Origin: a virus
Lineage: Duplodnaviria; Heunggongvirae; Uroviricota; Caudoviricetes
Virus record (IMG/VR): IMGVR_UViG_2874945390_000002
Coordinates: 1-40,023 of that record
Reading direction: 5' to 3' (one strand)
DNA length: 40,023 bases
The position numbers and the translations under genes were made by a program. Under the pieces are notes generated by a model, which ran no database searches, was not told where the DNA came from, and saw only the letters and a list, made by a program, of their open reading frames with translations. Positions 14,985-17,822 of this stretch are shown piece after piece. Each line of letters starts with the position of its first letter. Within the stretch, counting starts at the first letter, position 1.

Positions 14985-15023
14985 TCTGAACAGCTTTGGC
15001 GGAGAGATTTTTGAGCAATCGAC

Positions 15024-15053
15024 TTGACTTTGCGTAAAATTGTCTTGTACTAT
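15024..15053 (+). promoter_or_regulatory. candidate late promoter (pR'-like)
   Basis: TTGACT (15024-15029), 18-nt spacer, TACTAT (15048-15053); about 45 nt upstream of the terminator. Confidence 0.3.
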
Positions 15054-15094
15054 TTTAAGTATGGGTTTTAGCGCCCAGATAAAAATTAACACGG

Positions 15095-15119
15095 AACCCG
15101 CCTTATAGCGGGTTTTTTG
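15095..15119 (+). terminator. rho-independent terminator (tR'-like)
   Basis: AACCCGC-cttata-GCGGGTT followed by a T-run. Confidence 0.6.
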
Positions 15120-15120
15120 A

Positions 15121-16065
15121 TTATGGTAAATTTTCCATAAATTTCTTAAATAGTAATTTGTCTTTATTGCTTACAGATTTCTGAATGTTAAGTAATGCAC
15201 GTAAAGGTTTAAGGTTTTCTCTTGTTGCAAAAACCCTAGATTTTTCTAAGCGTTCCTGAACAAAGTTAAAGCGTTCTCTTAATCTTGAAACCTTTATTCC
15301 AAAAGACAACACCTCTCTTTCAGTCAATTCATCTGGGGTGCATTTGCTTAATTTTTCCAGAACCATTTTTATATCTCTTTCATAAAGAAGAGCAATGTCA
15401 TAATCATTCAGCAAGCATTCAGGGTATTGTATTACCCCAATAAGTTCATTTATTGTTTTGTTTTTGTTGTTAACTTTTGGAGCTGAGTCGCTTGTTTGCT
15501 TCTGGGACATAATCTCGTCCAGTTCTAGTTCCTCTGTATTTTTTAATCTTGAGCGGAAAACACGCCCATCACCAGAAGCAGCCATCTTTTTCAATGTTTG
15601 ATAAGCTGCACGCCCGATAATTTTGGGGTCTTTCATGTCAAGAATTCTATGGGCGACCTCATTTAGCGATGGGCTACTGGACTCGATTTGTACCTTGAGC
15701 TTGTAATAGCTAAGAATATCGGCTTTTGCTTCTTTTAGGGCAGTAAGTAAGCGATGGAAATCAGCCTTGCGGCAAAGTTCGATAGCTAAGTCGTTAAATT
15801 TTATACCAAATACATTAGTCCCACACACATGGCCGATATTTGTTTCAAGTCCTTCTTTCGTAACCACCAGAAATCCCTTTTTATGTCCTTTGCGGCAATT
15901 GGATTTTCCGCATGGTATTTCCTCTGGTAGGTCATCGTAGTAACCAAAAACGTCAGAGAGTTGCTGATCATTTAACTCTAATTTGGGATAGTAAGACTCT
16001 CTCGCCTGAATTTCTGCTCAGTCATTCACGCGAATAAAACTTTCGCCATTCTTGAGAAAAATCAT
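15121..16065 (-). pseudogene. low-GC orphan gene of unknown function, with in-frame TGA after codon 15 (possible pseudogene; alternative GTG start at 15867)
   Basis: ATG 16063-16065 (rc) with AGGA SD; TGA at 16018-16020; frame then open 299 codons to 15121 with protein-like sequence (…YYDDLPEEIPCGKSNCRKGHKKG…HVCGTN…). Confidence 0.5.
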
Positions 16066-16189
16066 ACTCGTCCTTACTGTGGTTAGATTTAAAGCATATC
16101 CATTTGATATTTAATCACTATTCTTTTTGTGTTTCACCTAAAACCATTTTGTTTTCATGTTTAATGTGACTGATGTATCATCACTCCCC

Positions 16190-16263
16190 CAGCCATTTTA
16201 GCTAAATGATGAGAGCGAGTTATAATCGCCAGGTCGCTGGTTCAAGTCCAGCAAGGGCCACCA
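16190..16263 (+). tRNA. degenerate tRNA-like sequence (ileZ-like 3' half intact, 5' half decayed); probable pseudo-tRNA
   Basis: Perfect T-arm GCTGG-TTCAAGT-CCAGC, acceptor 3' strand AAGGGCC, discriminator A, CCA (16261-16263); no complementary 5' acceptor strand; anticodon stem has a mismatch. Confidence 0.4.
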
Positions 16264-16264
16264 A

Positions 16265-16338
16265 CCGTCACTAGCTCATCGGGATAGAGCATCAACCTTC
16301 TAAGTTGATGGTGCGGGGTTCGAGTCCTCGGTGGGGGG
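16265..16338 (+). tRNA. tRNA-Arg (anticodon UCU)
   Basis: D-arm GCTC-atcgggata-GAGC, anticodon arm TCAAC-CTTCTAA-GTTGA (anticodon TCT), 5-nt variable loop, T-arm CGGGG-TTCGAGT-CCTCG; acceptor stem has one mismatch and no encoded CCA. Confidence 0.6.
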
Positions 16339-16363
16339 TGCCCCTATTAAGTTGTCAAGCATG

Positions 16364-17560
16364 TTATGACCCCTGCGGGGTATAAAAAGTCCCGTCGCGC
16401 ATCATGGCGAACAGAACGTCGCAGCGTCGTCTCGCCAGGGCGATAAGCGCCTGATTGTGTCGTTTTCCCTGACTCATTTTGCGGGTGTAGTAAGCCCTGG
16501 AGAGCGGATCCCTGAGCGCGGCGAAGGCCGACAGGAACAACGCCCGTTTGAGAGCTTTATTACCCCGTCGCGAGGGATGCTCACCGCGTATTGACGAGCC
16601 GGATCGCCGAGTTACCGGCGCAAGGCCAGCATAAGCAGCGAGATGTGCGGCAGAGGCGAAGGCGCGGCAGGCGACCTCGGTGAGGAGTCTGGCTGCGGTC
16701 CTGACACCGACTCCGGGCATACTGGTCAGGACCGGGTAAAGAGGGTGAGCAAGAACTCGCTGTTCTACCTCAAGCGCCACCTCGTCTCTTTGCTTACGCA
16801 GCGTGATGAGCTGGAGTGCCAGACGTGGCAGTACTACGGCAGCGGCATTCGTGCCGGGAACGACGACGGTTTGTTCGGCCAGTGCCTGAGCTATGTCTGC
16901 TGCAAGGCGTTTACCCAGACGAGGCGCAAGTTTGCAGAGCTGGGCTGCCAGCTTCTTCTCACCCAGCGAAGCGAGTTTTTCTGGTGAGGGATATCGCTGG
17001 AGAAGATCGAGTACCGCCGGGTGCTCAAGTCTCGGACCGAGAACGCGCTCCAGTGCCGGATGTATCTGGGTCAGAAGGCCGCGGATACGGTTGCTGGCCT
17101 GCGTTGTCTGTGCGGCAAGATCATCATCGAAGCCGCAGAGCATGGAGAGTTCGGCGATTTGCTCGTCAGCCAGTTTCAGCGTGCGTAGCGCGTGAGGCAG
17201 GGTACGGGCAGCTTCGGCAATGATGGCAGCGTCACGAGCATCAGTTTTAGCTTCACCGGCGTGTAAGTCGGCTATGCGGCGCATGGCCAGTCCAGGGAGG
17301 TATCCGACAAGGACTCCTTCTGAGCGGGCAACGGCGACAGGTAACGCACCGATGGTAGCTGGCTGATCAACAACCAGCAGTATCTGACCATGTTGTTTCA
17401 GGTCAGATATTAGCGACCTGAGTTTGTTTTCGTCGTTGGGTAATGCTTTATCGAACAGGCGTTTACCTGAACGATTAATGGCAACAGCGTGATGCGTATC
17501 TTTACCGACATCAACGCCGATAAAGACCTGGACGGATTCGTAATCGCTGGATTCGGTCAT
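16364..17560 (-). CDS. IS110-family transposase
   Basis: N-terminal RuvC-like region (VFIGVDVGKDTHHAVAIN…) and C-terminal region (…MPGVGVRTAARLLTEV…YAGLAPVTRRSGSS…) typical of IS110/IS1111 transposases. Confidence 0.85.
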   Translation of the reverse strand: MTESSDYESVQVFIGVDVGKDTHHAVAINRSGKRLFDKALPNDENKLRSLISDLKQHGQILLVVDQPATIGALPVAVARSEGVLVGYLPGLAMRRIADLHAGEAKTDARDAAIIAEAARTLPHALRTLKLADEQIAELSMLCGFDDDLAAQTTQASNRIRGLLTQIHPALERVLGPRLEHPAVLDLLQRYPSPEKLASLGEKKLAAQLCKLAPRLGKRLAADIAQALAEQTVVVPGTNAAAVVLPRLALQLITLRKQRDEVALEVEQRVLAHPLYPVLTSMPGVGVRTAARLLTEVACRAFASAAHLAAYAGLAPVTRRSGSSIRGEHPSRRGNKALKRALFLSAFAALRDPLSRAYYTRKMSQGKRHNQALIALARRRCDVLFAMMRDGTFYTPQGS

Positions 17561-17800
17561 TCTGTCTCCCTTGTATATGGGTTAACCAGATAACCACGGG
17601 GAGCAGGTACCGGCATCCACGTTACAGACGGTCCCGGCAAAAGTGCCTGACCTGACCCCTATTAGCGGTTACCAGCGCCCCACCAGACCCGGTGACATCA
17701 CCCCCCGGATCATGGACGACTGGGGGCAGTAATCATGCCGGGTCTGGCTGGCTAACACCCCATTATAAGGGGTACGAATAAAGTAACGCGGGCTCCCGTT
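17561..17800 (-). ncRNA. candidate structured noncoding RNA in the IS110 5' region (possible bridge/seek RNA)
   Basis: No credible ORF; 10-bp inverted repeat CCAGACCCGG (17683-17692) / CCGGGTCTGG (17738-17747) and C6/G5 complementary runs at 17701-17726. Confidence 0.25.
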
Positions 17801-17822
17801 TTTTATTCGGACAGGAACAGAT

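Follow-up and report, generated by a model that had tools for sequence, protein, structure and literature searches.

The sequence analysed here, positions 1–40,023 of IMG/VR virus record IMGVR_UViG_2874945390_000002 (40,023 nucleotides (nt); hereafter the window), holds an entire lambdoid prophage carrying ipaH, which adjoins mlrA on its left and pgl on its right. All 6000 of the 6000 nt compared were identical to CP026836.1, in which the window lies at ∼206,503–246,525; that record is listed as Shigella boydii (PMC12817139). Between the late antiterminator gene Q and the late gene FI, the prophage has only a pR'-like promoter and the terminator tR', an orphan pseudogene, a transfer RNA (tRNA) pseudogene, a damaged tRNA-Arg, the IS110-family insertion sequence (IS) ISEc20 and 31 nt of the spacer between the capsid gene E and FI (Table 1). 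A first-pass annotation of this DNA had recognized Q, the promoter, tR', the orphan, two tRNA-like sequences, an IS110-family element and FI, and each was recovered at or near the position it had been given; tR', for instance, placed at 15095–15119, was found as a stem at 15093–15116 with a T run. FI is the first late gene still present, and from it a tail block, FI-FII-Z-U-V-G-T-H-M-L-K-I-J-lom, runs in lambda order (Pfam labels; collinear with the prophage of E. coli VL46).

The lysis, terminase, portal and capsid genes, reported as missing between tR' and FI in the first-pass annotation, were found to be missing from the window as a whole. A set of 23 lysis, terminase, portal, head and related late proteins was taken from the lambda-type VL46 and the HK97-type SCU-106 prophages and searched against all 40 kb by tblastn, with FI as a positive control; the 23 gave zero matches and FI alone matched. 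For the lysis cassette, the unmatched queries were two holins, two lysozymes and two Rz proteins, and for the terminase, portal, protease, decoration and major capsid functions neither the VL46 nor the SCU-106 set matched the window. Pfam labels across all called genes of the window likewise included no lysis, terminase, portal or head gene. Since the control was the only protein matched, no relocated copy of the late genes lies in another part of the prophage, and a rearrangement within it, which would have been the alternative to deletion, was not found.

What has been lost can be read from intact ipaH prophages of enteroinvasive E. coli (EIEC), VL46 (NZ_CM177010.1, at yecE/yecD) and CFSAN029787 (NZ_CP011416.1). 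These resemble the window in having a tRNA cluster after Q and ipaH at the right end, and in VL46 the FI to J region is 97.7–99% identical and collinear. They differ from it in their Q, early region and attachment site, and between the tRNAs and FI they retain genes for holin, endolysin, Rz, terminase, portal, protease, decoration and capsid. The VL46 interval equivalent to the gap, from the end of tRNA-Arg to the E-FI spacer, is 11.8 kb and contains tRNA-Thr, tRNA-Gly and 16 coding sequences, among them holin, endolysin, Rz, a ParDE pair, KilA-N, small open reading frames (ORFs), both terminase subunits, a head-tail joining gene, portal, an S49 protease, a decoration protein and the major capsid protein. 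In CFSAN029787 the gap, measured from a target site upstream of the holin gene to the E-FI spacer, is 10.2 kb with a complete lysis and head block. Both values lie within the 10–15 kb that had been estimated. To the left of the IS, the closest relative is SCU-106 (∼96%), in which the tRNAs are followed by an esterase gene, a lysis cassette and an HK97-type head module.

Alignment with the intact relatives, a check proposed in the first-pass annotation, mapped both endpoints to the base. On the left, homology ends at 16334/16335 within tRNA-Arg. On the right, homology to VL46 begins at 17792, which is 21 nt past the E stop codon and within the 3' arm of the E terminator (GCGGGAGC-TAAAT-GCTCCCGTTTTT in VL46). 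From 17792 to FI the window aligns with the VL46 E-FI intergenic region, and it then remains collinear with VL46 up to ipaH except for two IS4-family insertions. Intact relatives carry the intervening DNA, and an IS lies exactly at the joint, as expected of an IS-associated deletion. We consider it likely that the region is the scar of such a loss, in which the lysis-to-capsid block was removed from a lambdoid ipaH-carrying prophage.

The two joints of the IS are not alike. The ends of ISEc20 were set by aligning 14 independently placed copies and nine copies that share the FI joint with the window; the window IS has 99.1–99.6% nt identity to copies named ISEc20 by PGAP (99.1–99.9% when the independently placed copies are included). 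In the 14 independent copies, TGCCCC at one end is preceded by ∼6 G or G-rich bases, and GTAAC at the other is followed by 4 G or more, so ISEc20 targets G runs. The left joint in the window is canonical-looking, with a 6-G run before TGCCCC inside tRNA-Arg. A G run on both sides is, however, not what the window IS has, since the right joint deviates: GTAAC is followed by 1 G in the window and by 2 G in the nine other copies. The VL46-type E-FI spacer has no G run. We therefore read the FI joint as a probable deletion endpoint that nibbled the IS end, rather than as an insertion site.

The FI joint is shared with other Shigella. This exact FI protein was found in ten places, one of them the source genome, and in 10 of the 10 ISEc20 lies directly upstream; an intact relative with the same Q-tRNA-FI arrangement, whose existence would speak against a deletion, was thus not found. 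The other nine places are S. flexneri-type loci (one confirmed as M90T, CM001474; species inferred for eight), in which the right joint reads GTAACGG-CGGG-CTCCCGTTTT, identical to the window but for one G. To the right of the IS, the window and the nine loci are 99.4–100% identical over ∼7 kb, whereas to the left they are unrelated, or ∼89–94% identical in the tRNAs only. The M90T remnant at yecE (CM001474.1; L015 in our numbering of loci) illustrates the type: it has the same ISEc20-FI joint, FI to H DNA of 99.4–100% identity, and no lysis or head genes, but differs from the window in its chromosomal site, in a Q of the PF06323 family (229 aa) and in the left flank of its IS. In the nine loci a complete Ile-Arg-Thr-Gly tRNA cluster and then a spacer of 665 bp come after a PF06323-type Q, and the IS abuts ...GGTCTGTCGGGGGG, a canonical target lying 14 bp before the holin gene. 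In CFSAN029787 the same spacer runs on uninterrupted as GGTCTGTCGGGGGGCGGGATATG, whose ATG is the holin start codon. A simple ISEc20 insertion at that target, with both flanks kept and the holin start attached, is present in CP179952.1 (L032), which is from S. sonnei (PMC12511311). This locus appears to be the predicted pre-deletion state, and it was for the holin-upstream site only that such an intermediate was found.

Because the right joint recurs in nine loci with a different left flank, the loss of the holin-to-capsid block is probably older and shared, and not a single private deletion in this prophage. The left joint in tRNA-Arg, by comparison, is specific to a narrow S. boydii lineage. 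The exact Q protein was found in only 15 contigs and the exact orphan protein in only five, all of them short draft contigs except the source chromosome; those running beyond the orphan gene break off near the start of the IS, and most end in or just past that gene. A less-deleted left arm, sought through these two exact proteins, was represented by short draft contigs only. With a lineage-specific left joint and a shared right joint, at least two events are needed. The claim of the first-pass annotation that the IS110 element marks the deletion junction is therefore upheld as to position, ISEc20 lying exactly there, while its implication of one private deletion probably does not hold.

Table 1. 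Features of the 40,023-nt window
Feature	Position	Strand	Evidence or remark
Integrase, 428 aa	75–1361	minus	Next to mlrA
Early region, two direct IS3-family copies	3345–4608 and 5655–6918		1264 bp each; interrupt the early-left region; helicase, primase and Q follow
NUMOD4/HNH_3 ORF	10073–10693		Homing-endonuclease-like
Late antiterminator Q, 271 aa	14169–14984	plus	PF03589 (Antiterm); phrog_127 'anti-termination protein Q-like', E 1.5e-96
pR'-like promoter	15011–15053	plus	Two sigma-70-like hexamer pairs; consensus scan
isrK-like match	15056–15118		Rfam, sub-threshold
tR' intrinsic terminator	stem 15093–15116, feature to 15122	plus	9-bp stem and T run; consensus scan
Orphan gene, pseudogene	15121–16065	minus	AT-rich; between tR' and the tRNAs
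Pseudo-tRNA, tRNA-Ile-like	16192–16260	plus	cmscan 31.3 bits; rejected by ARAGORN
tRNA-Arg(UCU)	16265–16338	plus	ARAGORN (the only one of the two accepted); cmscan 46.6 bits
ISEc20, IS110 family	~16334–17788	minus	Ends ambiguous by a few G
ISEc20 transposase	16364–17560	minus	PF01548 (DEDD_Tnp_IS110) and PF02371 (Transposase_20)
ISEc20 5' non-coding region	17561–17788	minus
E-FI spacer remnant	17789–17822	plus	CGG(G), then 3' arm and T run of the E terminator, FI ribosome-binding region
FI	17823–18224	plus	PF14000; 97.7% aa identity to annotated gpFI of E. coli VL46
IS4-family element in H	22591–24028	minus	448-aa transposase
IS4-family element in J	~30399–32082	plus	448-aa transposase
Gap region, then lambda-type tail block FI to J, lom, tail-fibre genes, ipaH effector gene			Pfam labels

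A three-step history would account for these observations, the order of the steps being our inference. In the first, ISEc20 would have inserted at its preferred G-run target, 14 bp ahead of the holin gene, in a phage like the intact EIEC prophages. In the second, ∼10.2 kb would have been deleted, from the IS end as far as the terminator loop that follows the capsid gene E. With this stretch the holin, endolysin, Rz, small and large terminase, head-tail joining, portal, protease, decoration and capsid genes would have gone, and its loss would have produced the non-canonical IS-FI joint now common to the S. flexneri-type remnants. In the third, the S. boydii lineage would have lost or exchanged the DNA to the left of the IS, so that the IS came to abut position 16334 of tRNA-Arg, through either another deletion next to the first or homologous recombination with a copy of ISEc20 that had entered the tRNA. 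The CGG(G) next to the IS in the spacer remnant could be a footprint of the holin-upstream target (GGGGGG-CGGG-ATATG).

Several observations weigh against this history. The CGG(G) might just as well belong natively to a variant E terminator (CGGGAGCCCG...CGGGCTCCCG), and if so a separate insertion in the E-FI spacer, followed by recombination between two IS copies, would become admissible. No intact phage with the exact FI 5' region or E-FI spacer of the window was found in 5,426 E. coli genomes or 50,697 phage records; the best E. coli matches to the FI 5' region start at 17792 and are 95% identical there. Among the same 5,426 genomes there was also no simple ISEc20 insertion in this tRNA-Arg. 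The shared joint is at yecE in the S. flexneri-type loci and at mlrA in the window, which would require lateral exchange or gene conversion between prophages. Finally, the order of events draws no support from the IS copies, which lack informative single-nucleotide polymorphisms (SNPs): the window IS has the common Shigella ISEc20 sequence, and SNPs within it are uninformative as to whether the IS is chimeric.

An alternative that we judge unlikely is that the IS is a breakpoint at which ISEc20 recombination joined two prophages, giving a chimera or an inversion instead of a deletion, with a left arm made up of the mlrA integrase and the SCU-106-like Q region and a right arm made up of the S. 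flexneri/VL46-like FI-tail block; the missing genes of the left phage might then persist at a reciprocal junction in another part of the chromosome. In favour of this, the divergence seen against the S. flexneri-type loci jumps at the IS, from at least 6% on the left to ∼0.3% on the right, and the left arm's nearest relative has a head module of the HK97 type, which lacks FI. The abrupt change fits recombination through the IS, but a mosaic phage with a second adjacent deletion fits it equally well, and mosaic kinship to various E. coli phages is normal for lambdoid phages. The flanks also speak for it, since mlrA and pgl are not neighbours in E. coli K-12, where they lie far apart on the map. 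This mismatch is better placed elsewhere. When the ends of the window (1–75 and 38212–40023) were compared with other loci (L018, L022 and L039–L041), homology to the Shigella loci that carry the left-end genes of the window and an identical Lom, and to VL46, was found to stop at 38991, inside ipaH, beyond which the right flank is pgl/ybhD. The left-end genes of the window are carried by L038–L040 and L043 (the 428-aa integrase itself being visible in L038), Lom is identical in all of L038–L043, and L038–L041 end in ...ipaH-DinI-btsS, where btsS is the normal neighbour of mlrA. The window shares its left end with L039 and its J-Lom-fibre region with L039 and L041, at ∼99–100% identity. Since the left end and the Lom region both recur in loci that end at btsS, both arms of the window prophage are native to the mlrA site, and a chromosomal rearrangement breakpoint probably lies inside ipaH. 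The idea that the IS itself is the breakpoint of a chromosomal rearrangement, which the mlrA and pgl flanks had suggested, was dropped on the same comparison. The ends of such loci read, more fully, ipaH(547 aa)-methyltransferase-DinI-btsS.

It is less probable still that a single private event made the gap, ISEc20 copies in tRNA-Arg and in the E-FI spacer having recombined to delete 11–12 kb in one step. Recombination between two IS copies is the classical route of IS-mediated deletion, exactly one IS is left at the junction, and the left joint, with its 6-G run before TGCCCC, has the look of an ordinary insertion. The right joint does not: it has 1–2 G rather than at least 4, and a VL46-type E-FI spacer offers no G-run target for the second copy. 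Moreover, the identical right joint is seen in nine S. flexneri-type loci whose left flank is another, canonical one, which indicates that the right joint predates the tRNA-Arg joint or is independent of it.

IS110-family elements such as IS621 are said, in work attributed to Durrant et al. (2024), to have a bridge RNA. ISEc20 is like the IS621 type in its DEDD transposase, in having IS-end motifs in the upstream non-coding region and in its sequence-specific insertion, here into G runs; it differs in that its bridge RNA is putative only, the 5' non-coding region having no match to an Rfam family. That region contains TAATAGGGG, which matches the 3' end of the IS, and GTAACG, the complement of the 5' end CGTTAC, as expected for the donor-binding loop of a putative bridge RNA. 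The upstream region folds stably (−104.5 kcal/mol for 240 nt), and its G-rich and C-rich internal loops could match a G-run target. We think it very doubtful, but worth stating, that the ISEc20 recombinase, guided by such an RNA, itself made the deletions by recombining the IS end with pseudo-sites in the same molecule. If it did, the window and the structure in L039 would be natural examples of bridge-recombinase-driven genome reduction in Shigella prophages. In L039 (CP027027.1, 5540–7060), the ISEc20 copy adjoins a run of seven G (G7) in gene J, where its flank is canonical; on the other side, the usual G run is missing and the flank is a GTAACG hexamer within an IS4 copy, equal to the terminus of ISEc20 itself (...CGTAACG|TGCCCC...). 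The matching positions in the window are 29850–29856 and 23906–23911, respectively, and the odd flank may reflect microhomology or the use of a pseudo-end.

That the genes were never present, the prophage being a natural head-less and lysis-less satellite-like element, can be set aside as almost certainly wrong: beyond the absence of the genes nothing speaks for it, whereas the truncated tRNA, the half terminator hairpin and the non-canonical IS end mark joints, relatives collinear on both sides carry the genes, and the element is littered with other IS insertions.

The features that remain to the left of ISEc20 are themselves partly degraded. Q has ∼96–98% nt identity to a gene annotated 'antitermination protein' in E. 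coli SCU-106, and pR' and tR' are consensus-level matches with putative functions. The stretch 15056–15118, which spans the short transcript expected from pR' to tR' directly after the PF03589-type Q, gave a match to isrK, a Salmonella prophage-encoded small RNA family (Rfam), that is below threshold (26.1 bits, the gathering score being 50; E 0.0097). This stretch may encode a 6S-like or isrK-like leader RNA. The orphan gene has a TGG-to-TGA change (Trp to stop) at codon 16 relative to a 314-aa homologue in SCU-106. It belongs to phrog_7003, a family of function unknown in PHROG, and had no defence-system match in PADLOC. In some draft assemblies of the same lineage, contigs end ∼430 nt into this gene, a hint of another IS insertion there.

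Of the two tRNA-like sequences, the first has a 4-nt deletion in its anticodon arm, as an alignment with the VL46 tRNA-Ile and the SCU-106 copy shows, and the same sequence is annotated 'tRNA-Pseudo' in phage 611R1. In the second, tRNA-Arg(UCU), homology to the intact VL46 and SCU-106 copies extends only to 16334. Beyond it, the G run of the IS end stands in place of the final three bases of the acceptor stem, the discriminator and CCA, leaving an incomplete acceptor stem with a G:G mismatch at pair 3:70 and TGC where CCA stood. The tRNA region is a mosaic. The 4-nt deletion is held in common with SCU-106-type phages, while the anticodon UCU and the spacing of tRNA-Arg are as in the VL46/S. 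flexneri-type cluster, SCU-106 having Arg-TCG at that place. Among complete E. coli genomes, the best match to the combination of pseudo-tRNA and tRNA-Arg(UCU) was 92%.

Besides ISEc20, the prophage has four further IS copies, two of which split tail genes. The IS4-family elements, inverted relative to each other, divide the tape-measure gene H into 516 + 498 aa and the tail-tip gene J into 846 + 276 aa, and the tail module is therefore non-functional too. The insertion in J is common to other Shigella genomes (L038–L043). The IS3-family copies in the early-left region, which they break up, are IS600-sized, have HTH_Tnp_1 and rve ORFs, and are 99.5–99.8% identical to copies in the S. flexneri-type loci. 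In the replication module, the NUMOD4/HNH_3 ORF (200 aa in the gene calls of the source genome, 206 aa in the ORF list) and the beginning of the DEAD-box helicase gene overlap.

The earlier conclusion that the prophage can neither lyse its host nor package DNA is supported by the absence of the genes, and H and J are split in addition. Even with Q acting at pR', functions for cell lysis, for DNA cutting and packaging and for head assembly would be lacking, and what remains is a chromosomally fixed element carrying the ipaH effector gene. The cryptic K-12 prophages DLP12, Rac and Qin and the Shigella 'ipaH islands' are likewise chromosome-fixed lambdoid remnants without morphogenesis genes, often keeping cargo genes and riddled with IS elements. 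The case is one of ordinary IS-driven decay of a cargo-carrying prophage, of a kind already well known for Shigella and for the cryptic prophages of E. coli; we found no paper that describes the joints of tRNA-Arg with ISEc20 and of ISEc20 with the E terminator. Expansion of IS elements in Shigella is documented, including that of ISEc20 in S. sonnei (PMC7373316).

For annotation, the element is best labelled a defective, non-inducible ipaH-carrying remnant, and the tRNA-Arg beside the IS treated as damaged. The IS-FI joint, found at different chromosomal sites in S. boydii and in S. flexneri-type loci, together with the pre-deletion insertion in S. sonnei, makes a modest lineage marker. The joint could be used to trace the exchange or inheritance of ipaH prophage remnants among Shigella lineages, and it illustrates IS-driven genome decay.

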